DNA of 64,000 nt from Bacilli bacterium (GCA_025992315.1 DAJPHG010000001.1:810070-874069), one strand, 5' to 3'; positions 1 to 60,134 are shown, counted from the first letter of the stretch. Made by a program: numbers and translations. The notes: generated by a model not told the origin, from the sequence alone.

Positions 1-103
1 CATAATAAATGAACTTTCAAATCAAACATCTGCTTGTGGTATAATTTTAGAAAATTTAAATCAAAACTATCTTTTTTATCAAAATATTGATATTACAAAA
101 GAA

Positions 104-640
104 ATGAGATCTAATATGAAAAATCAAGTTCCTAAAACAATTTGGTTTACAGGATTATCTTGTAGTGGTAAATCTACATTGGCTAACGCTTTAGAAAGAT
201 ATTTAACTTCTTTAGGTAAACATACTATGTTGTTAGATGGAGATAATATAAGATTAGGAATTAATAAAGATTTATCATTTAGTATAGAAGATCGTAATGA
301 AAACTTAAGGAGAGTAGCAAATATCGCTAAATTATTTAATGATGCAGGAATTATTTGTATAACTAGTTTTATTACGCCTTTAAAAAGTCAAAGAAAAATG
401 ATAAAAGATATAATTGGCGATGATTATATAGAAGTATATGTAAATACAGATATTAAAACATGTGCTAAAAGAGATAAAAAAGGTCTTTATCAAAAAGCCT
501 TTAATAAAGAAATAAGTGATTTTACAGGAGTAGATAGTCCTTATGAAATACCTAGTAATCCTGATATTATTATCAATAACAATGATGATTTAGATGATGC
601 AATAAAAGAATTGATTAAAAATATAGAAATAAGTGAGTAA
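104..640 (+). CDS. cysC: Adenylyl-sulfate (APS) kinase; makes PAPS. The reading frame stays open upstream to the window edge, so it may be the C-terminal domain of a longer sat/cysN-cysC fusion.
   Basis: P-loop GLSCSGKST; LLDGDNIRLGINKDLSFS...DRNENLRR matches the APS-kinase signature; size about 175 aa. Confidence 0.85.
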   Translation: MRSNMKNQVPKTIWFTGLSCSGKSTLANALERYLTSLGKHTMLLDGDNIRLGINKDLSFSIEDRNENLRRVANIAKLFNDAGIICITSFITPLKSQRKMIKDIIGDDYIEVYVNTDIKTCAKRDKKGLYQKAFNKEISDFTGVDSPYEIPSNPDIIINNNDDLDDAIKELIKNIEISE

Positions 641-1541
641 AATGAATAAAAGTTTTAAAGTAGATTTTTTATGTGTTGGATTTAATAAATGTGGTACTAC
701 TACATTAGAAACTTTAATGAAATCAAATTCTGATATAACTTTACCCAAAAATAAAAAGGAAACTCTATTTTTTGATTGGTATAAAAATATCGAAAATCCT
801 TTAAAAGTGTTACAAGAAAAGTATTATCCAGATTATCTAAATAACAAATGTATAGGTAGTATAGAGCCGTCTTATATATCTAAAGCAAAAGAAGTTTATG
901 AGTATTTTGGTAAAGATGTTAAATTAATATTTATGTTAAGAAATCCTATTAAAGCAACTAATTCAATGTTTAGAATGCGTTTAAGAAGAGTACCAAATAA
1001 ATATTATGTTAATCTTTACAAGAAATATAATAATTTGGATGATATGTTTAATGATTTTATAGAAAATCAGATAAAAACAAAAAAATGTAAAGATTTTTTC
1101 TATGATGATACAATAAATGAATATTTAAAATATTTTAAAAAAGAACAAATGAAATTTATTGTCATGGAAGATTTTTTTAAAAATCCTAATAAATATATGA
1201 AAGAAATATCTAAATTTTTAAATATCAAAAATATAAAATATACAGATAAAGATATACATGTTTCTAATAAGGGGGATAAAATATCTAAAAATTATCTTTG
1301 CGCATATATCAATAATAAAACTATGAATTATCAAAGAAGACAAAGATGTAAAAAAGGAAATAATGAAAATAATTATGCTAGGAATATAATTAATAAAATA
1401 TATAAATATACTTTAAAGTCTTGCGATTATAAAATGAATGATACTCATGAAAAAATATTAAATGAAGTATATAAAAAAAGTATAACTAATACTTCAAAAC
1501 TAATTGGAATAGATTTATCTAACTCCTGGAATTTAAAGTAA
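633..1541 (+). CDS. PAPS-dependent sulfotransferase (carbohydrate sulfotransferase-like)
   Basis: 5'-PSB motif KCGTT (cf. PKxGTT), 3'-PB motif LRNPIKATNSMF (cf. RNPxxRxxS); translationally coupled to the APS kinase (ATGA overlap). Confidence 0.6.
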   Translation: MSKMNKSFKVDFLCVGFNKCGTTTLETLMKSNSDITLPKNKKETLFFDWYKNIENPLKVLQEKYYPDYLNNKCIGSIEPSYISKAKEVYEYFGKDVKLIFMLRNPIKATNSMFRMRLRRVPNKYYVNLYKKYNNLDDMFNDFIENQIKTKKCKDFFYDDTINEYLKYFKKEQMKFIVMEDFFKNPNKYMKEISKFLNIKNIKYTDKDIHVSNKGDKISKNYLCAYINNKTMNYQRRQRCKKGNNENNYARNIINKIYKYTLKSCDYKMNDTHEKILNEVYKKSITNTSKLIGIDLSNSWNLK

Positions 1542-1555
1542 AAGGAGAAGTTATA

Positions 1556-2575
1556 ATGAAAAATATATTATTATATACTATGACTTTAAATTATGGTGGT
1601 GCTGAAAAAAATATTTGTGCTTTAGCAAATTACTTAAGTGAGTTTTATAATGTTATTTTAGTTAGTAATATAAAATCAAAAAAAGCTTTTAAATTAAAGT
1701 CTAATATTAAAGTTTATCAGTTTGATAATTTTGATTCTGGGTATAAAAAATTAAAAGCAAAGATATCTAAAAAAAGAACTAAACAATTAAAAAGTATTAT
1801 ACTTAATGAGCAAGTTAATACTGTAATTGCTTTTTTGCCAGAGCCAAGTATTAGAGCTTTACAATTAAAAAAAGAACTAAACATTAAAGTAATTGTTAGC
1901 GTGCGAAATAATCCTAAATATGAATTCAAATATTGTAAGTTTATGAGAAATTATTATTATAAAATGGCTGATAAAATAGTCGTACAGGATGAAACATATA
2001 AAAAGTTTTTACCATGCAATGAAAAATGTATAGTTGTGCCTAATTTTTTAGAAAAAATAAATATTAGCCCTAATTTAAAAAAGGAAAATTATATTATTAA
2101 TGTTGGAAGACTTGAAAAGAATAAGAATCAAAAACTATTAATTAAAGCTTATTCTTTAATATCAACTGACTTGAAACTTTATATATATGGTGAAGGGTCA
2201 TTAAAAAATAAATTATTAAAATTAATAAAAAAATTAAATTTAGAAGGTAAAGTAATTATTAAACCATATGATAGTAATATATATGAAAAAATAGCTAAAG
2301 CTAAATTATTTGTTTTGTCTTCGTTGTATGAAGGAATGCCTAATGTAGTTTTAGAATCATTAGCTCTAAAGACTAAAGTAGTGTCAACTAATAATAGTCC
2401 AATGATAGCAAATTTATTGCCAAAAGAATTCGTTAGTCAATTTAATCCATATAATTTAGCTAAATGTATTGAAACTGCTTTAAAAAGTGACAAAATAATT
2501 CAATTTAATTATAATAATGATGATTCAAAAATTATGTGGAAGAAGATAGTAGAAGATGATAACGATGATGAATAA
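1556..2575 (+). CDS. Glycosyltransferase family 4 (GT-B fold)
   Basis: C-terminal EGMPNVVLESLALKTKVV matches the GT4 EX7E/E-G-x-P motif; RBS AAGGAGAAG. Confidence 0.7.
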   Translation: MKNILLYTMTLNYGGAEKNICALANYLSEFYNVILVSNIKSKKAFKLKSNIKVYQFDNFDSGYKKLKAKISKKRTKQLKSIILNEQVNTVIAFLPEPSIRALQLKKELNIKVIVSVRNNPKYEFKYCKFMRNYYYKMADKIVVQDETYKKFLPCNEKCIVVPNFLEKINISPNLKKENYIINVGRLEKNKNQKLLIKAYSLISTDLKLYIYGEGSLKNKLLKLIKKLNLEGKVIIKPYDSNIYEKIAKAKLFVLSSLYEGMPNVVLESLALKTKVVSTNNSPMIANLLPKEFVSQFNPYNLAKCIETALKSDKIIQFNYNNDDSKIMWKKIVEDDNDDE

Positions 2576-3872
2576 GAAATATATTATAGCTTTAGAAGAA
2601 TTTAATAAAAAATATCAAGATTTATATAATCATAAAGCTTTAAGAAAATATCGCAGAAATCAAAGAATAAAAGAAATGATTATACATGGCGAAATAAAAA
2701 ATTTATTTTTAAAAGCTTTTAAAAAATGCAAAAATAATAAAACAGAATTTTTAAAGCCTATTAAATATAATAATAAAATGGGTAAAAATGTAGTTTATAC
2801 GTGTATTTTAAATAATTATGACAGTTTATATGATCCATTAATTGAAAGTGAAAATACTGATTATATAGTATTTAGTGATAATCCTAATATTGCAATTAAT
2901 TCTAAATATTGGACTTTCAAACCAATTCCTAAAGCTATCTTAGAAAAATATAATAATAATCCTACACTGGTTAATAGATATTTAAAAATGCACCCTTATG
3001 AAGTATTTAAGGATTATGATTATTCTTTATATATAGATGGAACTATTGAGGTGGTTTCTGATATAAATGATTGTTTTAATTATATAAATAAAAAAACTGG
3101 TTTAGCTATGCATGATCATCGTAGTAGAAATGATGTTTATCAAGAAGCACAAGCATGTATAAAACAAAAAATTGGTAATAAAGAAAAAATAATTGAACTA
3201 ATGAATAAATATCAATTAGATGGATTTAAAGAAAATTACGGATTATTAGAAGCTACAGTTATAGCAAGTGATTTAAATAATCCTAAGTCAGTAGAATTGC
3301 TTGATTTATGGTATAAAGATTTTATAGAAAGTAAGTGTTTTAGAGATCAATTGGTATTACCATATATCTTGTATAAAAATAATTTAAAAATTAATGATGT
3401 TGGTATAATGGCACCTAATTTGAGTGTGAATTATAAATTTATTAGGCATATTCATATAAAAAGATATAATAACTGGTTTAGCAAAATAAAAGTTAGAATT
3501 ATTAATTTTGGCTTTAAATATAAGTGTGAAATATGTCATTCTCATTTAAATAAATATCTTAATAATGAGATATGTCCAGTTTGTAAAACTACTAAAGAAG
3601 AAAGAGAAGTATATAAATATTTAGAAAATAAAACTTTAAAAAATATATTAATTGTAAATGCAGATTTTAAAGTAACAACTTATAAGTTAAAGAAAAAAGG
3701 TGTTAGTGTAATTTGTATTAGTGATGATAAAATATCTAATTCTCAAAAATATGATTGTTTAATTTACAAAATAGAAAATAACAATCTAAAAAAATTGAAT
3801 AAATTATTTGATGAAAAAAACTATAATATTATTAAATTAGATGATAAAATATTTGTTATAGAGAAAAAATAA
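2556..3872 (+). CDS. Putative glycosyltransferase (DUF616/TOD1-like) with a C-terminal Cys4 zinc ribbon
   Basis: VYTCILNNYDSLYDP motif typical of DUF616; CEICH...CPVCK near the C-terminus. Confidence 0.3.
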   Translation: MITMMNKKYIIALEEFNKKYQDLYNHKALRKYRRNQRIKEMIIHGEIKNLFLKAFKKCKNNKTEFLKPIKYNNKMGKNVVYTCILNNYDSLYDPLIESENTDYIVFSDNPNIAINSKYWTFKPIPKAILEKYNNNPTLVNRYLKMHPYEVFKDYDYSLYIDGTIEVVSDINDCFNYINKKTGLAMHDHRSRNDVYQEAQACIKQKIGNKEKIIELMNKYQLDGFKENYGLLEATVIASDLNNPKSVELLDLWYKDFIESKCFRDQLVLPYILYKNNLKINDVGIMAPNLSVNYKFIRHIHIKRYNNWFSKIKVRIINFGFKYKCEICHSHLNKYLNNEICPVCKTTKEEREVYKYLENKTLKNILIVNADFKVTTYKLKKKGVSVICISDDKISNSQKYDCLIYKIENNNLKKLNKLFDEKNYNIIKLDDKIFVIEKK

Positions 3873-3884
3873 AGAGGTGTTTAG

Positions 3885-4568
3885 ATGGATCTTACAATAT
3901 TATTGCCTTGTTTAAATGAAGAAGAAACCTTAGATGAAACCATAAAAGAAATTAAAAGAGAATTAAAAAAAATTGATATAAAATCTGAAATTTTAGTTGT
4001 TGATAATGGAAGTTGTGATAATTCTATTAAAATTGCTAAAGAAAATGAGGTTAGAATTGTAAGAGAAAATTTAAAAGGCTATGGAAGTGCTTTATTAACT
4101 GGAATAAAAAATTCTCAAGGAAAATATATAATTTTTGGCGATTGTGATCGAAGTTATCATTTTGAAAATATAGAAGAATATTTAAGCAGTTTAGAACAAG
4201 GGTATGACATAGTTATTGGATCTCGTTATAAAGGAGTAATGGAAAAGGATTCCATGCCATTTTCACATAAATATTTAGGTACTCCAATTATTACTTTCTT
4301 AGGAAGAAAATTATATAAAGTATCTGTTAGTGATTTTAATTCAGGATTAAGAGGGGTAAATAAAGAAAAAATATTAAGTATAAATTTAAATTGTATGGGA
4401 ATGGAATTTGCTAGTGAAATGTTAATAAAAGGTGCAAAATGCAATTTGAAAATTAAAGAAATTCCAATAAATTTTTATAAAGATAAAAGAGGTAGAAAAC
4501 CTCATTTAAGAGCATTTAGAGATGGAATGAGACATCTAAAAATATTATTAAAGGAATTAAGAAAATGA
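3885..4568 (+). CDS. GT2 polyprenyl-phosphate glycosyltransferase (GtrB/CsbB/DPM1-like)
   Basis: LLPCLNEEETL...VVDNGSCDNS...GDCDRS GT2 motifs; about 227 aa, typical of this family. Confidence 0.65.
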   Translation: MDLTILLPCLNEEETLDETIKEIKRELKKIDIKSEILVVDNGSCDNSIKIAKENEVRIVRENLKGYGSALLTGIKNSQGKYIIFGDCDRSYHFENIEEYLSSLEQGYDIVIGSRYKGVMEKDSMPFSHKYLGTPIITFLGRKLYKVSVSDFNSGLRGVNKEKILSINLNCMGMEFASEMLIKGAKCNLKIKEIPINFYKDKRGRKPHLRAFRDGMRHLKILLKELRK

Positions 4569-6217
4569 AACTAACATCTAGAGAAAAGAAAATATTTTTT
4601 ATCAGCATCTTATTTTTATTATTTGGTATTAAATTATTTATTGTTAGTATTCAACCGATTTATATACTTAATTATATACACGATGATTCTCTTTTTGTAT
4701 TAAGAGCATTTAATATTTTAAATGGAAATTATTTAGGTAATTATAATGATATTATTTTATCAAAAGGAATTATAGGCAGTCTTTTTATAGCATTAGCAAA
4801 TATTACTAAATTAGGATATTTAAAGGCTAATCATTTAATATATTTTATAGCTTGTTTATCAATTATTCATATGTTAAGTAATGTAATAAAAAGCAAGAAA
4901 TGGTTATTAATTATTTATATTATAATTTTATTTAATCCTATTTCTTATAGTGATGTTGTATCTTTTGTTTATAGAGATGGTATTTACATTTCATTTATTA
5001 TGCTTTTCTTTTCATTGAGTTTTGAAATGTTTTTTAACTATAAATCTTTAAAAAAAATTATATTTTATAGTATAACCTTTGGAATAACTTTTACTTGTAT
5101 ATATTTATGTAGAGAAGAAACAACGTGGTTATATCCATATTTAATTTTACAATATTTAATAATAACTTTATTTATTATAAAAGATAAATCTTGCTTAAAG
5201 AAATTTAAAAAAATAATATCAATGGTTGTGTTGCCAGTTGTAATTTTAGGATTAAGCTGTACTTGGATAGCCACTTTAAATTATAAATATTATCAGAGAT
5301 TTGTTATAAATGATTTTACTAGTAAAGATTTTAAAGATGCATATGGAGCTTTGACTAGAATAAAGCAAGACGATTATATTAATAGAGTGCCTTTAAATAA
5401 AAAAAACAGATTAAAACTATATGAGCTAAGTCCTACATTTAATGAATTAAAATCGTATTTAGAAAATGATGGATTAAAATATACAAATGAACATCAAAAT
5501 GAATATAATGAAGGATTTTTATATTGGGCAGTTAGAGAAGGTGCATATAAATTAGGATATTATCAGAATGCTCAGAAAGCTAAAGATTTTTATAAACGTT
5601 TAGCTAATGAAATAAATGATCTTTGTGATAATAATAAACTTTCTTGCTATCCAAAAAGAAGTTCATTAACTGCACCATTTATTAAAGAAGAATATAGTGA
5701 GTTTGCTAAATATGTCCCAAAAACATTTATTACGCAACTGAATTATAGTAATGTCTATGTTAAAATACCTAATAAAAATAAAACTAATAGATTATTTAAT
5801 GAAATTACTTTAAATAAAGACAATTATACTAATAAAGATTTAAAATCAGTACGCTTAAAAGTTATGAATCTTATTTTAAGGATATATCAGAATATAAATA
5901 TATATTTAATGATAATTTCAATAGTTTTATATACAATATTAATTGTAAAGTTTTTTAAAACTAATTTTAAAAATTATAAAGAAATAATTGTTTTAAGTGC
6001 TTTGTTCTGCTTATATATCGTAAGAATATTAGCCGTTGCGTTTGTAGCTGCTACTGAGTATAAATCTGCTATAAATAAATGCCAATATTTATCTTGCTGT
6101 TATGTTATTCAGTCTTTATTTACTATTTTAGCGATAATTTTCTTTTTAAAGGAGTATAAAAATGCAATATTTAACTTATCAAAAAGAATCAATAGATCTA
6201 ACAAAATTAAGCATTGA
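4565..6217 (+). CDS. Polytopic membrane protein, GT-C-fold glycosyltransferase-like (partner of the upstream GT2)
   Basis: About 10 predicted TM helices, HDDSLF acidic motif in the first extracytoplasmic loop, large soluble loop of about 200 aa; start overlaps the GT2 stop. Confidence 0.35.
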   Translation: MKLTSREKKIFFISILFLLFGIKLFIVSIQPIYILNYIHDDSLFVLRAFNILNGNYLGNYNDIILSKGIIGSLFIALANITKLGYLKANHLIYFIACLSIIHMLSNVIKSKKWLLIIYIIILFNPISYSDVVSFVYRDGIYISFIMLFFSLSFEMFFNYKSLKKIIFYSITFGITFTCIYLCREETTWLYPYLILQYLIITLFIIKDKSCLKKFKKIISMVVLPVVILGLSCTWIATLNYKYYQRFVINDFTSKDFKDAYGALTRIKQDDYINRVPLNKKNRLKLYELSPTFNELKSYLENDGLKYTNEHQNEYNEGFLYWAVREGAYKLGYYQNAQKAKDFYKRLANEINDLCDNNKLSCYPKRSSLTAPFIKEEYSEFAKYVPKTFITQLNYSNVYVKIPNKNKTNRLFNEITLNKDNYTNKDLKSVRLKVMNLILRIYQNINIYLMIISIVLYTILIVKFFKTNFKNYKEIIVLSALFCLYIVRILAVAFVAATEYKSAINKCQYLSCCYVIQSLFTILAIIFFLKEYKNAIFNLSKRINRSNKIKH

Positions 6218-7031
6218 TGAATTAAATTATCTTAATTTTAAAGAAGAAAGTCATTTTGCTTTAGAAATTAAAAAATTAGAACCATTTTCTAAAAAAAGAT
6301 TTCATTATATGAAAGAAGCATATAAAAAAATATTTATAATATCTAATGAAAAAAAATCTAGGTTAAACAAAAAAACATATGGTGCCACTAATGCATCAAT
6401 TAACTTACTAAAAAAATTAGTTAAACAGCAGAATATTAATGTATTTTATGAAGCAGGCGTAGCTAATTTATTTGCTATAAAACAATTAGATTTTTTAGAT
6501 AAAAATAAAATTTATGGATGTGATATTTTTTTGGAAAATAATTTAAAGAAAGGATATAAAAATATTCATGAAAATGATTTATATCATGATTTGCTGAAGC
6601 TCCCAGATAATTTTATAGATTTTTTCTATGCTGATAATGTTATGGAACATATAGTAGAAGATGAATATCAAGAAACATTAAAATTAATAGTAAAGAAAAT
6701 GAAAAAAGGTGGTCTTTTATATTTTATTATTCCAAATTTATATAATGGTCCAGATGATGCTTCAAAATATGTTTTAAAAAGGGGAGAGAAAGCTTGCTGT
6801 TTTCATTTTATGCAAAGAAGTTATAAAGATAATATAAATGATTTTTATAGTTATGGTTTAAGAGTAAAATATGATGCTATTTATATTAAATCTAATGAAA
6901 TTAAAGTTTTTAAATCTAATAAATTAACTGAACAAATAAAAATATTTTTTGAAAAAATGATTGCTAAAGAAACTAAGTATCATTTATTAAAAAGATTAGG
7001 ATATGATATTTATATTTTAGAAAAGAAGTGA
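6162..7031 (+). CDS. SAM-dependent methyltransferase-like protein
   Basis: NVMEHIVEDE...KGGLLYFIIPN resembles Methyltransf_11/23; RBS AAGGAG before the ATG. Confidence 0.4.
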   Translation: MQYLTYQKESIDLTKLSIDELNYLNFKEESHFALEIKKLEPFSKKRFHYMKEAYKKIFIISNEKKSRLNKKTYGATNASINLLKKLVKQQNINVFYEAGVANLFAIKQLDFLDKNKIYGCDIFLENNLKKGYKNIHENDLYHDLLKLPDNFIDFFYADNVMEHIVEDEYQETLKLIVKKMKKGGLLYFIIPNLYNGPDDASKYVLKRGEKACCFHFMQRSYKDNINDFYSYGLRVKYDAIYIKSNEIKVFKSNKLTEQIKIFFEKMIAKETKYHLLKRLGYDIYILEKK

Positions 7032-7119
7032 TAATATAAAAGTTTTAAAAATTGCTAAAAGATTATTTTATTTAGGTAATAGATATCAGTGTAACTTATG
7101 TGGTTTTAGAGTTAGAAAA

Positions 7120-7776
7120 ATGTTGTCAACTGGTCATAAACATCAAATTTTTTTAGATAATACAATTATCGGTGCAGGGTATAGAAATAATGCTGTATGT
7201 CCAATTTGTTACTCAAAAGATAAAGACAGATTAGTTTATTATTATTTAAAGAAATATACGAATATATTTAAAGATAAAGAAAATGTTTTGCATATTGCAC
7301 CAGAAGGGCAACTTAGAAGAAGGATAAAAAATAATAGAAAAATAAATTATATTGACGGTGATATTAACTTGGATTATGTATCTAATTATATAGATATTAC
7401 AAATATCCAATACGATGATAACTATTTTGATTATATTATAATTAATCATGTATTAGAGCATGTACTTGATGAAAATAAAGCAATTATGGAATTAATTAGG
7501 GTATTAAATAGGAATGGTAAACTAATTATTACTGTTCCAATATGTCTTAATCATGAACATACTTTTGAAGATAATAGCATTGTAGAGCCAAAATTGCGAA
7601 TGAAGTATTTTTGCCAAGAGGATCATGTTAGATTATATGGAAAAGATTTTAAACAAAGAATAGAAAAGTATAATGTTTTGGTACAAGAGTTTAAACTAAA
7701 TGATCAAGAAAAGAAATTACTAAAGAGAAACTGTGTGTTAGAAGATGGAATAATATTTATAATAACAAAAAAATAA
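7120..7776 (+). CDS. SAM-dependent methyltransferase with an N-terminal zinc ribbon. The true start is probably upstream (from about 7033), with no canonical start codon visible.
   Basis: NHVLEHVLDENKAIMELIRVLNRNGKLIITVP methyltransferase motifs; the in-frame upstream sequence encodes YQCNLCGF, which pairs with CPICYS to form a Cys4 ribbon. Confidence 0.45.
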   Translation: MLSTGHKHQIFLDNTIIGAGYRNNAVCPICYSKDKDRLVYYYLKKYTNIFKDKENVLHIAPEGQLRRRIKNNRKINYIDGDINLDYVSNYIDITNIQYDDNYFDYIIINHVLEHVLDENKAIMELIRVLNRNGKLIITVPICLNHEHTFEDNSIVEPKLRMKYFCQEDHVRLYGKDFKQRIEKYNVLVQEFKLNDQEKKLLKRNCVLEDGIIFIITKK

Positions 7777-7787
7777 GACATAAAGTC

Positions 7788-8663
7788 TTATTCATAAAAT
7801 CTTTTGATCCAATTATGATAGTCGTAATAATCGACTATTTTTTTAGGTATTTTTTTATAAGGAGTATTCAAAAATTTTGGTAGATCCTTGTAATCATCTT
7901 TACCTATAATAAATACATTTTCTTTTCGATAAAAATCATAATTTGCAATATCTTCATTAGTAGTTATTAATTTCTTTTCAAAAAATATTGATTCCATTGG
8001 TCTTAAAGACAAACCAATTTGATGATTAGCATTAACATCTAATACTGCTTTAGATTTAGCTACTTCTTCTAGATATTTATCATAAGGTACAAAATCTTTT
8101 TCATTTTTACAAATATAGATATTTGTTTTTAAGTTATTAGCAATAAAATTATCGTTAATTTCTTTTAATATTTTTTCTCTACCTTTATCTCTACCACAAA
8201 AACATACATCTTGAATTACTTCTTTTTTTGGTAATTTACAATCCCAAGAATAGAATTGAGTATTATATTTCAAATTATATTTTTTTACTTCATTTTTATC
8301 AAAAGACCAAAATTCATCAACGTTAGGATCTTTTAATATTTTTTTATAACCTTCATTTAAGACATTCCAATAATATACAATAACACGACAGTGTTTATTT
8401 TTTTGCTTTATATATTTAGAAATATGAAAGCTATAATTATTTTCACCTAGTATTACTAAATCATATTTATCAATATCTTTTTTCCAATCTCCCCATAATT
8501 TTTTACTGTCAATTTTACATTTTCTTAAAATTTTAAACATTTTACTTTTAGGATGAAAAATATAGTATTTCTTAATATTTCTATTTTTTATATGCTTTAA
8601 GAAATAATCATTATTTTTATCCTTTAAAAATATGTAATTGTATTTTTCCATTACTTCCTCCAA
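7788..8663 (-). CDS. Hypothetical polysaccharide-biosynthesis protein of unknown family; the only minus-strand gene in the locus
   Basis: 291 aa soluble Lys/Tyr/Trp-rich protein embedded between glycosyltransferases; no motif recognised. Confidence 0.3.
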   Translation of the reverse strand: MEEVMEKYNYIFLKDKNNDYFLKHIKNRNIKKYYIFHPKSKMFKILRKCKIDSKKLWGDWKKDIDKYDLVILGENNYSFHISKYIKQKNKHCRVIVYYWNVLNEGYKKILKDPNVDEFWSFDKNEVKKYNLKYNTQFYSWDCKLPKKEVIQDVCFCGRDKGREKILKEINDNFIANNLKTNIYICKNEKDFVPYDKYLEEVAKSKAVLDVNANHQIGLSLRPMESIFFEKKLITTNEDIANYDFYRKENVFIIGKDDYKDLPKFLNTPYKKIPKKIVDYYDYHNWIKRFYE

Positions 8664-8731
8664 AAACTATGTATCTGTTTCTAGCATAACATGAAATAAT
8701 GGCATTTACTAGTTAGTTTTGATATAATGTT

Positions 8732-9853
8732 ATGGTAAATAAGGAACGTGATAATGTGAAAATATTATATACTGCTAATACAGATATGCATATAAATTTA
8801 TGTCATATTCCATATATTAAAGAGCTTTCAAAGAAACATATTGTTCATGTCGCAACAAATAGTTTCTTAAATATTAATTATGCCTCCGAGAAAATATCTT
8901 TACCTATTAAAAGAACTCCGTTTCACTTTTCCAATATTAAAGCAATTTTTAAGTTAAGAAAAATTATAAAACAAGAAAAGTATGATTTAATTATTACAAA
9001 TACTCCAATGGGAAGTGTAGTTACTAGATTAGCAGCTAAGGGGTGTAAAATAAAAATTATTTATATAGCTCATGGTTTTCATTTTTATAAAAATTGTCCA
9101 AAAATTAATTATTTATTATATTATCCTGTTGAAAAATATTTATCTAAATCTACTGATTTAATAATAACGATTAATCAAGAAGATTATTTATTTGCTAAAC
9201 AACATTTTAAAACTAATATAAAATTTATACCAGGTATTGGTTTTAATCAAAATAATTTTAATAATAAATTAACTTCAAAAGAAATATTGATATTAAAGAA
9301 TAAATTAGGAATTACTAAAAATGATTTTGTAATATCATATATAGCAGAAATTTCTAAAAGAAAAAGACAACTTTATCTATTAGAATGTTTAAGTAAGTTA
9401 AATAATTCTAATATTAAATTAGTTTTAGTTGGTAATAATATATTAGGTAATAAAATAGATAAAACAATAAAAAAATATAATTTAGAAGATAATGTTATCT
9501 TATTAGGATTTAGAAATGATATTAGTGATATTTTAGATATAACTGATTTAGTAATATCTACAAGTAAACAAGAAGGATTACCTTTAAATATTATGGAGGC
9601 AATGTATAAAAATAAAAATATTTTAGTAACTGACTGCCGCGGTAATAGAGATTTAATAAATAATGATAATGGAAAAATAGTAAATTTAAATGATCAAAAT
9701 GAGCTTATTGAAGACATAAATTATTTTATTAAAAATAAAGAAATTAAATATGATAATAAAAAAACAGCTTTAAACTACAGTATTGATAATATAAAAATGA
9801 AATATATAAATATTTTTAATGATTATTTAGGAGTCAAAAATGAAGAAAAATAA
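8732..9853 (+). CDS. Glycosyltransferase family 4
   Basis: ISTSKQEGLPLNIMEAM, the GT4 E-G-x-P...EAM motif. Confidence 0.7.
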   Translation: MVNKERDNVKILYTANTDMHINLCHIPYIKELSKKHIVHVATNSFLNINYASEKISLPIKRTPFHFSNIKAIFKLRKIIKQEKYDLIITNTPMGSVVTRLAAKGCKIKIIYIAHGFHFYKNCPKINYLLYYPVEKYLSKSTDLIITINQEDYLFAKQHFKTNIKFIPGIGFNQNNFNNKLTSKEILILKNKLGITKNDFVISYIAEISKRKRQLYLLECLSKLNNSNIKLVLVGNNILGNKIDKTIKKYNLEDNVILLGFRNDISDILDITDLVISTSKQEGLPLNIMEAMYKNKNILVTDCRGNRDLINNDNGKIVNLNDQNELIEDINYFIKNKEIKYDNKKTALNYSIDNIKMKYINIFNDYLGVKNEEK

Positions 9854-11066
9854 AGAATTGATCACTACAACATATTTAATTGCTACTTTAATTTTATTGT
9901 TTATAGGAATGATATTTATATATTTTCAAGTAATATTATTTCAGGATTATATGTATATATTTTATGGTTTATCTTTAATCAGCATTCCTATAATGTTTAT
10001 AAATAAAATAAGATTTAAAGATATTTATCCTATTTGTATATTTTTACTAGTATTATACTTATCTTCACTATTTTCGGGAGATTTTAATCAATCGTTATTT
10101 GGATTTAGTGGTAGATATGAGGGATTGTTATCATTTATTAGTTATGCATTATTGTTTATGTGTGCGACTAGTATTAAAAATGAAAAATATAAAAAATATG
10201 TTATAAATACAATTTTCTGTGTAGGAATAGGAAATATTTTATTTGCAACTTTACAAAACTTTAGAATTATAGAGTATAATCATTTATATCCAAAATCTTT
10301 ACTTGGCAATTCTAATTCTTATGCAACTTTATGTTTAATGAGTTCTATTTTAGCTTTGGGAATGTTTTTATATAATAAAAAGAGAATTTATCTTATTTTA
10401 TTTATCGCTTTTGTATATGGTCTTTTATTAAGTGGATCTATGGGATGTTTATTAGCATTTATTATTACTTTAGTAATATGGTTTATATATAATTTATGTA
10501 TTAAAAAAATAAAAATATCTAAAAGATCGATAAAAATTAGTTTGGCAGTAATTTCTATTATATTAATCTTTTATTTTATATTAAATCTAGGAAATAATAA
10601 TCATTTAACTAGAGATATAATAGAGTATAAAAACGACTTTATTAATTTATTATCAGGACAGGTTAGTGATAGACTGGGGAATAATAGATTTCAAATATGG
10701 AAAGGAGTATTAGCAATAACACCTCAATATTTATTACATGGAACTGGTGTTGATCGACTTGCATATGCTCTAAATGAAGTTGGTTTTGTTTTAAATACTG
10801 GAGAATTGGTAGATAAAGCTCATTGCGAGTATTTACAATTATTAGTTACAGGTGGAATATTTGCTTTAGCTTCATATATTTATTTTTTAATAATTGCTTT
10901 GATTAAATCTTTTAGAAATGCTAAGAATAATAAATTATTTTTAGCAATATTCTTTACAATTATAGCTTATTTACTTCAAGCTTTTGTTGGTATTAGTGTA
11001 ACTAGAGTAGCTTATATATTTTATATAATAATGGGCTTAGGATATAATAAAGGAAATGAGGGTTAA
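9840..11066 (+). CDS. O-antigen ligase / Wzy-type polymerase family membrane protein
   Basis: About 11 TM helices; Wzy_C-like loop RLGNNRFQIWKGVL...HGTGVD...AHCEYLQLLVTGG. Confidence 0.6.
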   Translation: MKKNKELITTTYLIATLILLFIGMIFIYFQVILFQDYMYIFYGLSLISIPIMFINKIRFKDIYPICIFLLVLYLSSLFSGDFNQSLFGFSGRYEGLLSFISYALLFMCATSIKNEKYKKYVINTIFCVGIGNILFATLQNFRIIEYNHLYPKSLLGNSNSYATLCLMSSILALGMFLYNKKRIYLILFIAFVYGLLLSGSMGCLLAFIITLVIWFIYNLCIKKIKISKRSIKISLAVISIILIFYFILNLGNNNHLTRDIIEYKNDFINLLSGQVSDRLGNNRFQIWKGVLAITPQYLLHGTGVDRLAYALNEVGFVLNTGELVDKAHCEYLQLLVTGGIFALASYIYFLIIALIKSFRNAKNNKLFLAIFFTIIAYLLQAFVGISVTRVAYIFYIIMGLGYNKGNEG

Positions 11067-28718: not shown

Positions 28719-29110
28719 AGGGCGAAATTAGAAAATACTTTTTTAAGTATTTTTTTAAAATAAAGAGAAATAGAAAGAAGTGAAAAAAATGGATATGTAT
28801 CAAAAAAGAAAAATCAGGGCTGAAATGAAAAATAACAATCAAGAAGAAAAGTTAACTAAAGTCGGAATTAACTGGTTGATTACGATTTATCCAAGAATAG
28901 GAGAAAACTCCGATAAAATAAATGATTGTGAGATTTAATATCTTGCATGTTTAATATAAAAAATGATAAAATAGACAAAAAATCATAAAAAATGATTATT
29001 TTTAATGCAAAAAGTAGTAGGAATTAGTAAGGTGATTACGCCACCTAATAATAAAAAATATGGTATTAAATATGACATAATACTTAGCAAAAAGGTAGGT
29101 GAATGATATT

Positions 29111-30118
29111 ATGAAAACAGATATTTTATATTTAAATAATACACCATATGAAAATGGTAAATTATCAGGTGAATATTTTAGGAAAAATGTCATTATTAAT
29201 TTAGAGGAAATTAATAATGTGCTATTAAATAACGACATTAAAAACCAAATTGTTAGCCAACTTGATAATTTGAAAAATGAATATCCAAAATATTATGATG
29301 AAACAATAGGAAAAGCAGATGGTTTAGGAATTGATAGATTAACTTATTTTGCCATCATGTGTCCTGAAATTATTGATATAAAATTTGAACATTGTACAAC
29401 AATTATGTGTAAAAAGGGTAATGGTAGTTTTATAATTTCGCATAATGAAGATGGCGATTATATTGAAGGAAATTTTTGCTTAAGTAAAGTAAAAATAGAT
29501 AATGATAATTGGTTTCTTACAAATGATATGTACAATATGCCATTTGGCAATGGTATTAGTTGGAATAGCTATGGAATAGTTAAAACTATTAATTATTGTC
29601 ATGATGATAATGTTGATATTAAAAATCATCCAAGATATTTTTTACAAAGACATATATCTGAAGCAAGGTCAATTGACGATTTAATTAAAAGATGTAAAGA
29701 AATGAAAGTTGCATCAGGTTTTCATGTTAATGCAATAGATATTAATAATAATGTAGCAGTTTCTATCGAAGTATATTCAGATAGTATTGATGTTGAATAT
29801 ATAGATGATTATTATGTACATTCTAATCATTTTATTCATAAAGATTATTTGCTTAATCAAGTAACTGATAAAGGAAGTAATAGCATATTTAGATTAAACA
29901 AATGTAATGAACAATTAAAATACAAAACAATGAATGAAATTAAAACAATATTATCTTATAGATCAAAAGAAAACAAGTTTGAAAATTCAATATTACAAAC
30001 AAAAGAAGATCCATATATGACATTATTTAATTTTTCCTTTGATACAGATAATAAAAATAAAATATATTTGAATAATTATATAAATAGTGAAATAATTGAG
30101 TTAAAATATGATTTATAA
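29111..30118 (+). CDS. Peptidase C45 / acyl-CoA:6-APA acyltransferase-like Ntn hydrolase (putative)
   Basis: EHCTTIMCKKGNGSFIISHNEDGD resembles the Cys-nucleophile/NED region of C45 and choloylglycine-hydrolase-like proteins. Confidence 0.3.
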   Translation: MKTDILYLNNTPYENGKLSGEYFRKNVIINLEEINNVLLNNDIKNQIVSQLDNLKNEYPKYYDETIGKADGLGIDRLTYFAIMCPEIIDIKFEHCTTIMCKKGNGSFIISHNEDGDYIEGNFCLSKVKIDNDNWFLTNDMYNMPFGNGISWNSYGIVKTINYCHDDNVDIKNHPRYFLQRHISEARSIDDLIKRCKEMKVASGFHVNAIDINNNVAVSIEVYSDSIDVEYIDDYYVHSNHFIHKDYLLNQVTDKGSNSIFRLNKCNEQLKYKTMNEIKTILSYRSKENKFENSILQTKEDPYMTLFNFSFDTDNKNKIYLNNYINSEIIELKYDL

Positions 30119-30134
30119 AAGGAGTTGATCTCTA

Positions 30135-30166
30135 ATGAATGAAAATAAAACTAATATTAACTGGTA
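30135..30166 (+). repeat. Repeat copy C: the native 5' end of rbgA, the presumptive attachment site
   Basis: ATGAATGAAAATAAAACTAATATTAACTGGTA identical to copy B over 32 nt. Confidence 0.7.
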
Positions 30167-30998
30167 TCCAGGTCATATGGCTAAAACTAAAAGACTAATA
30201 AAGGAAAAGTATAATTTAATAGATGTAGTTTATGAATTAGTTGATGCAAGAATACCTTTTTCATCTAAAATACAGGATATTGATGAAATATTAAAAAATA
30301 AACCTAGAATATTAATTATGACTAAAAAAGATCTATGTGATGTTAATGAAACTAATAAATGGGTTAAATATTATGAAGGTAAAGGTTATAAAGTTTTACT
30401 TTTAGATTTAAATAATAATGAAGATTATAAAAAATTAATTGATGAAACTAACATAATAATGGAAGATAGCCAAAAGATAAGAGAACAAAAAGGATTAAAA
30501 GAAAAAGAGATTAGAGCTTTAGTTATTGGGGTGCCTAATGTAGGGAAAAGTACTTTGATAAATAAGCTTGCTGGTAAAAAAATAGCTAACGTTGGAAATA
30601 AGCCAGGAGTTACAACAAATCTTACTTGGTTAAAAACTAAAAGTAATATACTTTTATTAGATACGCCGGGTATTTTATGGCCTAAATTTGATAGTGAAGA
30701 AATCGCTTTAAATTTAGCTAGTATGACATCAATTAAATCAGAAGTTTTACCCATAGATGAAGTAGCAGTTCATATTTTAAAAAAATTAGATTTATTTTAT
30801 AAAGATATTTTGAAAAAAAGATATAATTTAGATTATTTAGATGAAGACTTAGTTGTAGTTTATGATAGCATTGGACGTAAGATTGGTGCTATAATAAGTG
30901 GTGGAGATATAGATTACGATCGTGTTAGTAATGCTATTTTAAATGATATTAAACAAGAATATGTTAAGGGAATTACTTTTGATAGAATAGAGGATTAA
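30135..30998 (+). CDS. rbgA: Ribosome biogenesis GTPase A (YlqF/RbgA)
   Basis: NWYPGHMAK, circularly permuted GTPase motifs GVPNVGKSTLINKL and LDTPGIL. Confidence 0.85.
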   Translation: MNENKTNINWYPGHMAKTKRLIKEKYNLIDVVYELVDARIPFSSKIQDIDEILKNKPRILIMTKKDLCDVNETNKWVKYYEGKGYKVLLLDLNNNEDYKKLIDETNIIMEDSQKIREQKGLKEKEIRALVIGVPNVGKSTLINKLAGKKIANVGNKPGVTTNLTWLKTKSNILLLDTPGILWPKFDSEEIALNLASMTSIKSEVLPIDEVAVHILKKLDLFYKDILKKRYNLDYLDEDLVVVYDSIGRKIGAIISGGDIDYDRVSNAILNDIKQEYVKGITFDRIED

Positions 30999-31000
30999 CT

Positions 31001-31600
31001 ATGAATATAGCTCAAATTGATAATTTACTAGAAGAAAAATTAGTTTATTCAGAATTTTTAAGTGCAACTAATCGTCAAAAAATGTGCGAAATTATTTTTA
31101 ATTATTGCACTAATAAAAGAGTTAGTATGACTATACTGTCATATAGATTAGAGGAAACTATTATTTTTTTACAAGAATTGGATTTAACTCTTGAAGAGAT
31201 TACATCAGCAATAAAAAATAGTCCTTCATTATTACATGCGAATAAAAAGGATATGTTATCTAAATATTTAGTATTAGTATATTTAGATGAGCATTTAAAT
31301 CAACCAATAAGAAAACAAACATTGATTGAAAATACAAAATATTATGTTATAGGTTTATCTACTATATATGCTAGAATTATGTATTTGCAAGAACATAATC
31401 CTAATGAAATATCAAAGTGGCATGTTTTAAAAATGACTAATAAAGAATTTGAAACTAAATTTAATGTAAATACTGATCAATTAAAATTAGATTATCCATT
31501 TGATGATCAAGCATTTATGCACGTTTTAGACCATCCTGACAATGAAGAGATAAAAAATAAAATATTTGTATCATCTAGATCAGGAGGGTATCATGCCTGA
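31001..31600 (+). CDS. Hypothetical protein
   Basis: 199-aa ORF between rbgA and rnhB; no recognised motif. Confidence 0.3.
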
Positions 31601-58781: not shown

Positions 58782-59759
58782 ATGAAAAAGAGAAAAATAA
58801 TATTTTTGCTATTATCTATTATCATATTCCCATTAAATGTTTTTGCTTATTCTAATTATGTTATTCCTGGTGGAGAAAATGTTGGAATTGAGATAAATAG
58901 CAAAGGGATAATGGTTATAGGGTTTTATAAAATTAATGGAAAATTAAATAAAGGAAATCCTGAAATAAAAGTAGGTGACCAGATATTAAAAGTAAAAGAT
59001 AAAGATGTATCTACTACAGATGAATTAATTAATGCGATTGATAAATATAGAAAAGATAATAATGTAGAAATCACAATATTACGAAATAATAATAAAAAAG
59101 TAGTTAATTTAGAGCTGATTTTAGTTGACAATATTTATAAAACGGGTCTTTATGTAAAAGATAATATTACAGGAATTGGAACATTAACATATATAGATCC
59201 GGAAACTCTTATATATGGAGCTTTGGGTCATCAAGTAGCTGAAAGTAACTCTAATAAAACTGTAGAGGTGAAAAGTGGAATAATTTTTAGAAGTTATGTC
59301 ACAAGTATAGATAAGAGTGCAAGGGGAAATCCAGGAGGCAAAAATGCTAAGCTTGATTATAATACTAAATATGGCAGCATTTTAAGCAATACAGAATATG
59401 GCATTTTTGGAAAATATACAGAAACTTTGCCGAGTAAAGAAACGGTTCAAGTTGCAACAGCAGATGAAATAGAATTAGGAGAAGCTTATATATATACTGT
59501 CTTAAATGATGAAGATGTAGAAAAATTTAAAATAAATATTACTAAGATTGATAAAAGCAATGATATAAAAAATATATATTTTGAAGTTACTGATGAAACA
59601 TTGCTAGATAAAACTGGTGGTGTTGTCCAGGGAATGAGCGGATCTCCAATTATTCAGAATAATAAAATAATCGGTGGTGTCACTCATGTAATAGTTTCAA
59701 ATCCTACTACAGGAATGGGCATTTTTATAACCACTATGCTAAAAGAAGGGGAAAAGTAA
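58782..59759 (+). CDS. spoIVB: SpoIVB-type S55 peptidase (PDZ domain plus serine protease)
   Basis: Signal anchor, PDZ region, GALGH and QGMSGSPI catalytic motifs. Confidence 0.7.
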   Translation: MKKRKIIFLLLSIIIFPLNVFAYSNYVIPGGENVGIEINSKGIMVIGFYKINGKLNKGNPEIKVGDQILKVKDKDVSTTDELINAIDKYRKDNNVEITILRNNNKKVVNLELILVDNIYKTGLYVKDNITGIGTLTYIDPETLIYGALGHQVAESNSNKTVEVKSGIIFRSYVTSIDKSARGNPGGKNAKLDYNTKYGSILSNTEYGIFGKYTETLPSKETVQVATADEIELGEAYIYTVLNDEDVEKFKINITKIDKSNDIKNIYFEVTDETLLDKTGGVVQGMSGSPIIQNNKIIGGVTHVIVSNPTTGMGIFITTMLKEGEK

Positions 59760-59843: not shown

Positions 59844-59931
59844 GGTGCCCAAGGCCGGACTTGAACCGGCACGGGCTTTAACACCCGCAGGATTTTAAGT
59901 CCTGTGCGTCTACCAATTCCGCCACTTGGGC
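59844..59931 (-). tRNA. tRNA-Leu (anticodon TAA), long variable arm, CCA encoded
   Basis: The reverse complement reads GCCCAAGTGGCGGAATTGGTAGACGCACAGGACTTAAAATCCTG...CCTTGGGCACCA. Confidence 0.85.
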
Positions 59932-60074
59932 AAAATAGGCACCATGTCTTTTTAAGACTATTAAAGTATAACCTAAATTTAGTATATTTTCAAGTATTAT
60001 TTAGAAATTTTTATAAAAAATTGCAAAAAAATAACTTTATGTAAATGTTTTATAAAATTAACTATATATATTTG

Positions 60075-60104: not shown

Positions 60105-60134
60105 CTTATTGTTGTCAGACGAATTAATCAATGT

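Follow-up and report, generated by a model that had tools for sequence, protein, structure and literature searches.

A candidate sulfation cassette in a cell-envelope glycan operon of an uncultured member of the Bacilli

Results

Gene content and organization of the locus

The window analysed here is the whole of a 64,000-nucleotide stretch of DNA from a metagenome-assembled genome that carries the label "Bacilli bacterium"; the source is an uncultured, low-GC, spore-forming organism, and its label places it in the Bacilli rather than in the Clostridia-like background proposed in the initial annotation. The window opens within a string of glycan-related genes (Table 1), and the genes upstream of its edge were supplied by contig L001, which matches the window without a difference over 4484 nt. 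Read across the two, the order is Wzm-Wzt-CysD-CysNC-sulfotransferase-GT4-TOD1-GT2-GT-C-methyltransferase-methyltransferase-(glycosyltransferase)-GT4-Wzy_C, preceded on L001 by a dehydrogenase-like gene and followed, beyond the Wzy_C gene, by DNA-repair and lipid-phosphatase housekeeping genes.

Table 1. Genes of the glycan locus; positions refer to the window unless contig L001 is named
Feature	Position	Strand	Domains, matches and remarks
Wzm-type permease	L001 5794-6579		ABC2_membrane; outside window
Wzt-type ATPase	L001 6576-7298		ABC_tran; best NCBIfam matches TagH and galactan Wzt, all under equivalog cut-offs; outside window
CysN-CysC fusion, full 597 aa	L001 8206-9999		GTP_EFTU, GTP-eEF1A_C, APS_kinase
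cysNC, 3' end	2..640	+	last ~34 CysN codons, then complete APS-kinase domain at 104-640
PAPS-dependent sulfotransferase, heparan-sulfate-sulfotransferase-like, 299 aa	642..1541	+	PF00685
GT4 glycosyltransferase (cytoplasmic chain assembly)	1556..2575	+	PF00534, E 2.5e-26
TOD1/MUCI70 (formerly DUF616)-type glycosyltransferase-like	2556..3872	+	PF04765, 39.9 bits vs cut-off 21.4
GT2, polyprenyl-phosphate sugar synthase-like (GtrB/AglJ/PpgS-like)	3885..4568	+	PF00535, E 9.7e-26
GT-C fold membrane glycosyltransferase, 550 aa	4565..6217	+	no Pfam family
SAM-methyltransferase-like protein 1	6162..7031	+	PF08241, 22.5 bits vs cut-off 21.2, weak match
SAM-methyltransferase 2	7120..7776	+	PF08241 (Methyltransf_11), E 1.6e-9
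WaaS/CpsH-family glycosyltransferase	7788..8663	-	NF053598, 200.5 bits vs cut-off 60
Second GT4 glycosyltransferase	8732..9853	+	PF00534, E 5e-28; PF13477
Wzy_C/O-antigen-ligase-family membrane protein, last gene of the locus	9840..11066	+	PF04932, 52.7 bits vs cut-off 31.7, E 5e-14

All genes named in the initial annotation were recovered where it had placed them, and profile searches confirmed its family assignments for the two GT4s, the DUF616-like protein, the GT2, the two methyltransferases and the Wzy-like protein. The description of the genes as all co-directional has to be revised, however, because the minus-strand WaaS/CpsH-family gene had been missed, and the junctions, although mostly short or overlapping as described, are wider at two places: the two methyltransferase genes lie 88 nt apart, and a second interval accommodates this minus-strand gene. 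Neither is there an ATGA overlap between cysC and the sulfotransferase gene: the junction reads TAA-A-ATG, with the stop codon at 638-640, a 1-nt spacer and the ATG at 642; with the alternative start, a GTG at 633, the two genes would share 8 nt. A true 4-nt overlap is found at the GT2/GT-C junction (4565-4568).

Synthesis of PAPS

The cysNC frame is open from base 2 of the window, so that the gene starts upstream, and it matches the profile of the bifunctional CysN/CysC protein (NF004035) at model positions 416-627 of 632. The APS-kinase domain, as originally called, is well supported by PF01583 (E 1.8e-60; 203.8 bits vs a cut-off of 21.1; model positions 3-152 of 152) and by TIGR00455, apsK (210.7 bits vs 138.7), and its translation contains the P-loop GLSCSGKST. 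In the full 597-aa protein on L001, the CysN part scores 414 against TIGR02034 (cut-off 336), and the entire protein scores 674 against NF004035, just below the cut-off of 715. Directly upstream lies CysD (NF009214, 465 bits vs 413). The suggestion that ATP sulfurylase might be fused to the kinase or encoded upstream thus turned out to be true on both counts: the open frame encodes the end of a CysN-CysC fusion, and CysD precedes it on L001. As judged from sequence, the arrangement is that of a NodQ-type bifunctional CysN-CysC with an adjacent CysD, and the predicted PAPS pathway is complete and contiguous across L001 and the window.

A sulfotransferase intact in sequence

The product of the next gene scores 43.8 bits with Sulfotransfer_1 (PF00685; cut-off 22). 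This 299-aa protein is predicted to be soluble, with neither a signal peptide nor any transmembrane segment. Both PAPS-binding motifs reported for it in the initial annotation proved to be conserved in 22 homologues, down to 26% identity. In the 5'-PSB motif, GFNKCGTT, K16 and T19 are invariant, and in the 3'-PB motif, RNPxxxxxS, R100 and N101 are present in at least 90% of the sequences, with P102 and S108 invariant. The pair K39-E40 is invariant as well, and E40 aligns with the glutamate of QEIHFFD in 3-OST-5 and with that of KKEAHFF in 3rnl. The glutamate of motifs of the QEIHFFD type is the catalytic base in heparan-sulfate 3-O-sulfotransferases, and we take E40, which aligns with it, to be the putative catalytic base here.

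The family profile matched PDB 3rnl (1.4e-40), an Alicyclobacillus acidocaldarius sulfotransferase of unassigned function, heparan-sulfate 3-OST-5 (1.5e-26) and NDST1 (1.5e-13). Structure prediction, which had been proposed as a check along with the profile match, led to the same family: in a Foldseek comparison of the AlphaFold model (pLDDT 90.8, pTM 0.88) with the PDB, the top 50 matches were all sulfotransferases, the best being 3rnl, 3-OST-3/1/5 and NDST1, and the TM score was ~0.6-0.7 versus carbohydrate sulfotransferases and ~0.4 versus cytosolic SULTs. The modelled fold is that of a PAPS sulfotransferase with a PAPS cleft and, by its sequence, the enzyme is intact, with the heparan-sulfate 3-O- and N-sulfotransferases as its nearest relatives.

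Glycan assembly, methylation and export

A ribosome-binding site, AAGGAG, lies 8 nt upstream of the first GT4 gene, and the TOD1/MUCI70-type protein carries a Cys-rich C-terminal extension. The GT2 finds its best NCBIfam matches in AglJ, dolichyl-phosphate hexose transferase and PpgS, all under the cut-offs. The GT-C protein spans the membrane several times in a GT-C fold, has acidic residues in its first extracytoplasmic loop and is presumed to be the extracytoplasmic partner of the GT2; certain of its homologues carry a fused GT2 domain, and those of 865-872 aa carry PF08241, that is, methyltransferase 1 is fused to the GT-C C-terminus in some relatives. The Wzy_C protein may be a ligase, a polymerase or an O-oligosaccharyltransferase, its sequence being compatible with each. 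Upstream, the permease and the ATPase form a predicted Wzm/Wzt-type exporter. The ORFs scanned, from the window and the 9.4 kb upstream of it, included no initiating polyprenyl-phosphate phosphoglycosyl transferase (WecA/TagO or WbaP type); the gene for this enzyme may lie in another part of the genome.

Relatives of the cysD-cysNC-sulfotransferase triad

The triad is present, in independent contexts, in each of the five close relatives whose flanking sequence is long enough to show it. The most informative of these, L076, is an orthologous glycan locus in which GT4a, TOD1, GT2, GT-C, methyltransferase 2, WaaS, GT4b and Wzy_C are 42-64% identical to their counterparts in the window (51% for the first GT4, 52% for methyltransferase 2, 61% for WaaS/CpsH and 64% for the second GT4) and in which the triad is kept despite a different gene order. 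There, the orthologue of methyltransferase 2 stands directly after the sulfotransferase, that of WaaS/CpsH is on the minus strand too, and the TOD1/MUCI70 homologue forms one protein with a complete UDP-glucose/GDP-mannose dehydrogenase. In L078, a contig of 60% GC, the triad adjoins DUF2142, two GT2s and a polysaccharide deacetylase, and it is also found in L080. Tandem sulfotransferase homologues occur in a TagF-type, teichoic-acid-like locus (L079) and, in L082, next to genes for a GT4 and an APS kinase. Other contexts are different: in L073, the triad, with a sulfotransferase 56% identical to that of the window, is located between yabG and veg/spoVG, near FkbH-ACP-MBOAT genes and without glycosyltransferase neighbours, and a long-form sulfotransferase clade (~37% identical) is found among folC-folE-folP genes. 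These two contexts imply that family membership alone does not fix a glycan acceptor.

Discussion

The observed domain identities, conserved PAPS-binding and catalytic residues, folds, gene order and conservation of the triad are best explained if the region represents the downstream two-thirds of an operon for a cell-envelope glycan, equipped with a sulfation cassette of its own. All the computational evidence gathered supports the central idea of the initial annotation, namely, that the PAPS genes feed the sulfotransferase within a surface-glycan locus, and none of the refuting conditions named in that annotation was borne out. The acceptor, the order of the steps and the chemistry in the following scheme are what we infer. 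CysD and the CysN domain would make APS out of sulfate and ATP, the APS-kinase domain fused to CysN would turn APS into PAPS, and the translationally coupled, soluble sulfotransferase would sulfate the glycan at a hydroxyl or amino group while its chain, bound to a lipid carrier, is being assembled on the cytoplasmic side of the membrane by the two GT4s and the TOD1/MUCI70-type and WaaS/CpsH-type enzymes. At the same stage, the two SAM methyltransferases would O-methylate the glycan; the finished chain would then leave via the upstream-encoded Wzm/Wzt ABC transporter, side-chain sugars would be added outside the membrane by the pair of GT2, acting as a polyprenyl-phosphate-sugar synthase, and GT-C, and the Wzy_C protein would join the chain to its final acceptor. 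We consider it probable that sulfation and methylation occur in the cytoplasm, followed by export through the ABC transporter and decoration outside the membrane. Counted against the operon interpretation are the L073 triad, the long-form homologues among folate genes, the fatty-acid sulfotransferase of a gut member of the Clostridia discussed below, the truncation of the upstream nucleotide-sugar dehydrogenase (258 aa, below the family cut-off) and the absence from the locus of an initiating phosphoglycosyl transferase, a sulfate importer and a PAP phosphatase.

Given that CysD and CysN are standard assimilatory enzymes, it is conceivable that cysD-cysNC performs housekeeping sulfate activation for cysteine and that the sulfotransferase is an unrelated neighbour or inactive. 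We regard this as very improbable: cysH, sulfite reductase, cysK and sulfate permease were not found among ORFs of at least 150 aa across the 64-kb window and the 9.4 kb preceding it, so that the nearby assimilatory sulfate-reduction and cysteine-synthesis pathway that would have spoken for housekeeping is missing from ~73 kb, although this search covered only that part of a 1.19-Mb contig and cysH or sulfite reductase may lie elsewhere. Moreover, the sulfotransferase follows directly in a triad retained by every close relative in which it could be assessed, and its catalytic motifs are all intact. In Bacillus-type assimilation, APS is reduced directly and APS kinase is not required.

The acceptor is the subject of two further alternatives. 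The cassette might have an acceptor that is not a polysaccharide, for example a small metabolite, a glycolipid or some other lipid, in which case the glycan operon would only have offered a mobile cysD-cysNC-sulfotransferase module a convenient place to insert. The genomic backgrounds of the triad are indeed very unlike (GC from 21% to 60%), as expected of such a module; L073 lacks glycosyltransferases, the long-form homologues belong to folate-biosynthesis gene strings, and the sulfotransferase family, with 53,061 clusters at E<=1e-3, is very large and must act on a variety of substrates. Furthermore, according to the available text of PMC13449962, ErSULT from the gut member of the Bacillota Eubacterium ramulus is a PAPS sulfotransferase, with activity shown experimentally, that acts on hydroxy fatty acids; it is, however, of the Stf1-like type, unlike the window enzyme, and that text describes no glycan context or linked PAPS genes. 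Such an acceptor nevertheless seems unlikely, since in the window the triad sits inside an operon, with the exporter on one side, the glycosyltransferases on the other and junctions of 1-14 nt, L076 retains it with the same glycosyltransferase set despite rearrangement, L078, L079 and L082 are glycan contexts too, and the nearest solved relatives act on polysaccharides. Gene context supports a carbohydrate acceptor, yet not uniformly across the family. Alternatively, the glycan could be attached to protein instead of peptidoglycan, as a sulfated, methylated O-glycan carried by a surface protein such as that of an S-layer, or it could be a glycan of the spore surface, with Wzy_C as the O-oligosaccharyltransferase, a possibility that differs from the cell-envelope operon reading in the final acceptor only. 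Geobacillus and Paenibacillus possess ABC-transporter-dependent S-layer glycosylation loci, an architecture that the set of Wzm/Wzt, glycosyltransferases, methyltransferase and Wzy_C fits; genes resembling those for the coat proteins SpoVID and YsxE (YsxE 1e-29, below the cut-off) lie a few kb upstream, the window contains a SpoIVB gene, and the L073 triad is surrounded by sporulation genes. We find attachment to protein quite unlikely, however, in view of the lack of an S-layer (SLH) or target protein gene in the window and of the resemblance of the Wzt ATPase to TagH, the teichoic-acid exporter ATPase. In addition, the exporter, GT-C and Wzy_C imply passage through the cytoplasmic membrane, which the known spore-coat glycans, being assembled by the mother cell, do not require.

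The design of the operon, with its putative sulfation cassette, parallels known systems. In Sinorhizobium meliloti, NodP, NodQ and NodH, that is, a CysD homologue, a fused CysN-APS-kinase and a PAPS sulfotransferase, are encoded together and, in gene organization, likewise make up a dedicated sulfation cassette that acts on a glycan produced by neighbouring glycosyltransferase genes. The acceptor in the Nod system, however, is a lipo-chitooligosaccharide that a Gram-negative symbiont secretes as a signal, whereas the neighbours seen here (ABC exporter, GT4, GT2, GT-C and Wzy_C) point to a cell-envelope polymer. The predicted enzyme shares with the heparan-sulfate 3-O-sulfotransferases, the NDST domain and 3rnl the fold, the 5'-PSB lysine, the 3'-PB arginine and serine, and the glutamate of KE..FF(D), but sequence identity is only ~15%, a leucine takes the place of the histidine of the animal E-x-H-F-F-D motif, and the enzyme is predicted to be a bacterial cytoplasmic protein, whereas the animal enzymes reside in the Golgi. 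Gram-positive wall polysaccharide and teichoic-acid pathways resemble the locus in combining Wzm/Wzt (TagG/TagH-like) export with a polyprenyl-phosphate-sugar GT2 and a GT-C; unlike the GtrB/GT-C (CsbB/YfhO-type) decoration pathways, however, the window has a GT-C of no Pfam family. To our knowledge, none of the described Gram-positive systems of ABC export with GtrB/GT-C includes PAPS synthesis genes or a sulfotransferase.

The marine Vibrio sp. KMM 8419, with a sulfated capsule proven by NMR, provides a further parallel, the presence of cysNDC and sulfotransferases in a polysaccharide cluster having been termed a hallmark of sulfated polysaccharide synthesis (PMC11641403). In this strain, as in Cobetia marina KMM 1449 (PMC11766843), a second cysN/cysD/cysC set, sulfotransferases, glycosyltransferases and an ABC transporter belong to one cluster, and the co-location of PAPS genes, sulfotransferase, glycosyltransferases and exporter that defines a sulfated-polysaccharide cluster is also seen in the gene predictions reported here. 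The marine capsules differ in that these Gammaproteobacteria are Gram-negative and use Kps-type export through the outer membrane, the genes are spread over an 80-gene region that has no fused, translationally coupled triad, and no GT2/GT-C system for extracytoplasmic decoration has been described for them. Sulfated glycans and clusters of PAPS and sulfotransferase genes occur in more lineages than the few originally listed (PMC11641403, PMC13390465). Although sulfated surface glycans have not yet been described in the group to which the source organism belongs, they are known from other bacterial groups and, judging from the gene context that suggests the acceptor, this organism very probably makes one.

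Gene organization of the locus and its surroundings

Every gene named for this region in the initial annotation, namely, an APS kinase gene (cysC) and a sulfotransferase gene at the head of a surface-glycan locus, with the glycosyltransferase and methyltransferase genes behind them, was recovered in the ORF listing and the Pfam and NCBIfam scans of the window (see table). Three structural details are to be revised. The ATGA overlap proposed for the junction between cysC and the sulfotransferase gene is actually TAA (638-640), a single A and ATG (642), where an 8-nt overlap would arise only if translation began at the GTG codon at 633; the genes are not all co-directional because the WaaS/CpsH-family glycosyltransferase is encoded on the minus strand; and the locus extends no further than 11066. 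The G+C content of the locus is 21.6%, as against 24% for the window and 24.4% for the remainder.

Features of the glycan locus and its surroundings (window coordinates, except for L001, the overlapping Logan contig)
Feature	Position	Strand	Remarks
APS kinase	104-640	+	PF01583, E 1.8e-60
Sulfotransfer_1 protein, 299 aa	642-1541	+	43.8 bits vs cut-off 22
GT4 (GT4a)	1556-2575	+	
TOD1/MUCI70	2556-3872	+	formerly DUF616
GT2	3885-4568	+	
Membrane protein (GT-C), 550 aa	4565-6217	+	no family match
Methyltransf_11 (MT1)	6162-7031	+	weak, 22.5 bits
Methyltransf_11 (MT2)	7120-7776	+	
WaaS/CpsH-family glycosyltransferase	7788-8663	minus	200 bits vs cut-off 60
GT4 (GT4b)	8732-9853	+	
Wzy_C	9840-11066	+	last gene of locus
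ogt-like ORF, 93 aa	11056-11337		
YfhO family (GenBank name)	41153-43600		
SpoIVB peptidase	58782-59759		
Five-tRNA gene cluster	59846-60469		
T-box leader	61219-61465		128.6 bits
Asparagine synthase B	61525-63105		
SpoVID/YsxE-like coat genes	L001 1-1162		
MatE-PF13189 fusion, 661 aa	L001 1464-3449		
Nucleotide-sugar dehydrogenase, truncated, 258 aa	L001 5037-5813		144 bits vs cut-off 190
Wzm	L001, upstream of window		ABC2_membrane
Wzt, 240 aa	L001, upstream of window		best matches TagH and galactan Wzt
CysD	L001, upstream of window		465 bits vs 413
CysN-APS-kinase fusion, 597 aa	L001, running into window		

The GT2 protein is most similar to polyprenyl-phosphate-sugar synthases (AglJ, dolichyl-phosphate hexose transferase, PpgS) and, together with the GT-C protein encoded next to it, is predicted to form a familiar extracytoplasmic glycosylation system of the GtrB/GT-C type. 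The GT-C and MT1 genes share 56 nt, each in its own reading frame. Several relatives have one protein of ~870 aa in place of the two; the split form is kept in many assemblies of the window species. A second system of extracytoplasmic glycosylation, serving wall polymers, may be present in this organism, given the YfhO-family gene for a second GT-C type enzyme 30 kb downstream. On the 3' side of the locus are a truncated ogt-like ORF and genes for 3-methyladenine glycosylase, PAP2 phosphatase and ABC transporters; the ogt-like ORF, directly adjacent to the locus, retains only fragments of both O6-methylguanine-DNA methyltransferase domains and probably represents ogt in truncated or decayed form. 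In promoter and terminator scans, promoter-like sites were no commoner than in shuffled sequence; a TTGTCT-17-TATAAT site 5' of the dehydrogenase-like gene, a terminator-like hairpin 3' of MT2 (7817-7839) and an extended -10 element ahead of GT4b are weak hints only.

The initial annotation had placed the locus in a Clostridia-like Firmicute; the record is labeled as a Bacilli bacterium. Judging from the SpoIVB peptidase and the YsxE-like gene, the organism appears to be a spore-former; its genome, with a longest contig of 1.19 Mb, is possibly small, and the penicillin-binding proteins and transglycosylase that it encodes indicate a peptidoglycan wall. Elsewhere in the window, a T-box leader directly precedes the gene for asparagine synthase B, and five tRNA genes form a cluster.

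PAPS supply

The cysC frame is open from window base 2, and the residues preceding the APS kinase are the end of CysN, matching positions 416-627 of the 632 positions of the bifunctional CysN/CysC model. An exact-sequence look-up of the sulfotransferase identified the contig L001, which is identical to the window across the whole 4484-nt overlap and extends the locus upstream. There, a truncated nucleotide-sugar dehydrogenase, Wzm, Wzt, CysD and the CysN-APS-kinase fusion are encoded in this order on the same strand, each gene abutting or overlapping the next. ATP sulfurylase, which had been expected either fused to cysC or just upstream, is therefore both. The dehydrogenase keeps the catalytic-Cys motif GSCLPKD; its N-terminal domain is shortened and the whole C-terminal nucleotide-sugar-binding domain is absent. 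Further upstream are SpoVID/YsxE-like coat genes, a HAD protein and an unknown gene; the stretch separating the coat genes from the glycan locus also encodes a fusion of a MatE transporter with a cytidylate-kinase-like (PF13189) domain.

The sulfotransferase

Among 22 homologues, down to 26% identity, K16 and T19 of GFxKCGTT (the 5'-phosphosulfate loop), P102 and S108 of RNPxxxxxS, and E40 are invariant, and R100, N101 and K39 are present in at least 90%. The top match of the family profile is PDB 3rnl, a bacterial sulfotransferase of unknown function (1.4e-40), followed by heparan-sulfate 3-O-sulfotransferases 5, 1 and 3 (1e-26 to 1e-20) and NDST1 (1e-13 to 1e-15); cytosolic SULTs match far more poorly (1e-5 or above). 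In the alignment with 3-OST-5, E40 coincides with the Glu of the QEIHFFD motif, which is the catalytic base. In a Foldseek search, the confident AlphaFold model (pLDDT 90.8) retrieved sulfotransferases exclusively, carbohydrate enzymes first, with TM values of 0.6-0.7 compared to ~0.4 for SULTs. The protein thus matches sulfotransferase models and has the predicted fold of a PAPS-sulfotransferase, so that the refutations of this assignment proposed in the initial annotation fail. The N-terminus leads straight into the PAPS loop, leaving no signal peptide or membrane anchor, and the enzyme is, by its sequence, cytoplasmic. The protein type is not rare, considering that the wider family comprises 53,061 clusters (50% identity) at E<=1e-3 and 5,589 at E<=1e-30.

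Conservation of the cysD-cysNC-sulfotransferase triad

In all five close short-form members with enough flank, cysD-cysNC lies directly 5' of the sulfotransferase gene: the window itself (L001) and the contigs L073, L076, L078 (60% GC) and L080, whose sulfotransferases are, respectively, 56%, 57%, 37% and 45% identical to that of the window. The L076 locus is orthologous to the window locus, with counterparts of GT4a (51% identity), TOD1 (42%), GT2 (64%), GT-C (49%), MT2 (52%), the minus-strand WaaS (61%), GT4b (64%) and Wzy_C (46%), in an order unlike that of the window and with additional genes for RmlC, RmlB/D, a Glf-like flavoprotein, DUF6020 and a TOD1-dehydrogenase fusion. Retention of the triad with the same set of glycosyltransferases through this rearrangement is the strongest argument for a joint function. 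Rhamnose (rml) genes were sought in the window since they are present in L076, and the candidate ORFs at 29099-31600 proved to encode AAT-family, GTPase and mTERF-like proteins. In L080, the triad is directly followed (3654-4175) by a fragment whose start, recognized by eye in translation, resembles a transporter of the chromate/sulfate (ChrA-like) family; this gene may encode the sulfate importer of the cassette, and none like it was seen in the window.

Glycan contexts recur in other contigs, with DUF2142, two GT2s and a polysaccharide deacetylase encoded near the L078 triad, two tandem sulfotransferases within a TagF-type teichoic-acid-like locus in L079, and GT4, two sulfotransferases and APS kinase in L082. 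A profile scan of 185,579 species-representative genomes gave best matches only 38% identical to the sulfotransferase and thus did not recover the window species; it also missed the closest clade (P0003-P0005), which reads KSG rather than the KCG of the scan pattern. Within these genomes, homologues with cysD/N/C genes no more than 10 kb away are found in Clostridium sp. AM49-4BH (where cysD-cysN-cysC lies 2.6 kb upstream), in two Dorea MAGs, in Oscillospiraceae MAGs and in two flavobacteria, cysN and cysC being unfused in the cultured Clostridia that carry the cassette; Eubacterium plexicaudatum ASF492 is another cultured relative with a homologue, there in a locus rich in glycosyltransferase genes. 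The sulfotransferase clusters contain 37 and 70 member sequences, compared with 32-104 for core genes, so the species seems to carry the locus stably and not as a rare island.

Proposed pathway and alternatives

Domain identities, motifs, folds, gene order and conservation are shown for this locus; from these, we infer an acceptor, a sequence of events and a chemistry, in a scheme that we consider probable as a whole. CysD and CysN would convert sulfate to APS, and the fused kinase would convert APS to PAPS. In the cytoplasm, the WaaS-type enzyme, TOD1 and the GT4s would build a lipid-linked glycan, which would receive O-sulfate (or N-sulfate) and O-methyl groups there; Wzm/Wzt would then export the chain. 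Outside the membrane, GT2 and GT-C would supply side-chain sugars, and Wzy_C would join the chain to its acceptor. Methyl or phosphate caps end chains in O8/O9a-type systems; sulfate was considered here as a possible cap and not adopted, and the 240-aa Wzt has no room for a carbohydrate-binding module.

Action of the sulfotransferase on a non-polysaccharide acceptor is unlikely in our estimation, even though some homologues lie away from glycan genes. In L073, from another low-GC spore-former, the triad (within 1521-10903) has no glycosyltransferase neighbors and lies between yabG and veg/spoVG/yabP/yabQ; upstream of it, genes for FkbH, acyl carrier protein, glyoxalase and MBOAT form a set that resembles a Dlt-like polymer-acylation system. 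In a Butyribacter sp. MAG (L004; JAZQLD010000030, 8118-13715), two long-form homologues of 411-436 aa with an additional N-terminal domain of ~120 aa are encoded amid folC-like, folE and folP genes, with no glycosyltransferases near them, which suggests a non-glycan, perhaps pterin- or folate-related, acceptor for the long-form clade. Given these contexts, family membership alone does not prove a glycan acceptor. A gut-Clostridia sulfotransferase characterized in 2026 acts on fatty acids (PMC13449962). Somewhat less likely still is a glycan that is protein-linked or placed on the spore surface, which would differ from the main scheme only in the final acceptor; the spore-coat version is rated low because of the export machinery. 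That cysD-cysNC serves plain assimilation is very improbable: neither among the window ORFs of at least 150 aa nor in the 9.4 kb upstream were cysH, sulfite reductase, cysK or sulfate permease genes found.

Implications

Surface glycans owe a strong and fixed negative charge to sulfate esters, which, in animals, mediate most glycan-protein recognition. Most of the bacterial surface glycans that are proven to be sulfated belong to rhizobia, mycobacteria, cyanobacteria or marine Gram-negatives. In its design, the triad equals NodP-NodQ-NodH. Genes for PAPS synthesis, a sulfotransferase, glycosyltransferases and an ABC exporter occur together in a marine Vibrio whose capsule NMR has proven to be sulfated, and the authors consider this combination a hallmark of sulfated polysaccharide synthesis (PMC11641403); exopolysaccharide clusters that include a sulfotransferase are known from cyanobacteria and have been predicted for Actinoplanes (PMC13390465). 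In the full-text literature, the coverage of which is incomplete so that absence is not proven, we found no description of a sulfated wall-glycan or polysaccharide cluster in Bacillota.

The sulfated glycan is thus a genomic prediction from familiar parts, and the locus a solid, testable lead: an unsurprising mechanism apparently operating in a host group and a type of envelope for which it is undescribed. The cassette so far ranges over low-GC Bacilli MAGs, one 60%-GC contig and cultured Clostridia. Conceivably, although we hold this only tentatively, the triad marks sulfated cell-wall glycopolymers of an undescribed class that is fairly widespread in Gram-positives; anionic, methylated and possibly uronic-acid-containing, they could replace teichoic acids or mimic sulfated glycans of the host. 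If the prediction of a sulfated glycan is correct, members of Bacillota, including the cultured carriers of homologues, would bear sulfated wall polymers, with possible effects on phage adsorption, on cation binding and immune recognition, and on resistance to host sulfatase-dependent foragers; glyco-engineering would gain bacterial carbohydrate sulfotransferases that come with a PAPS supply of their own.
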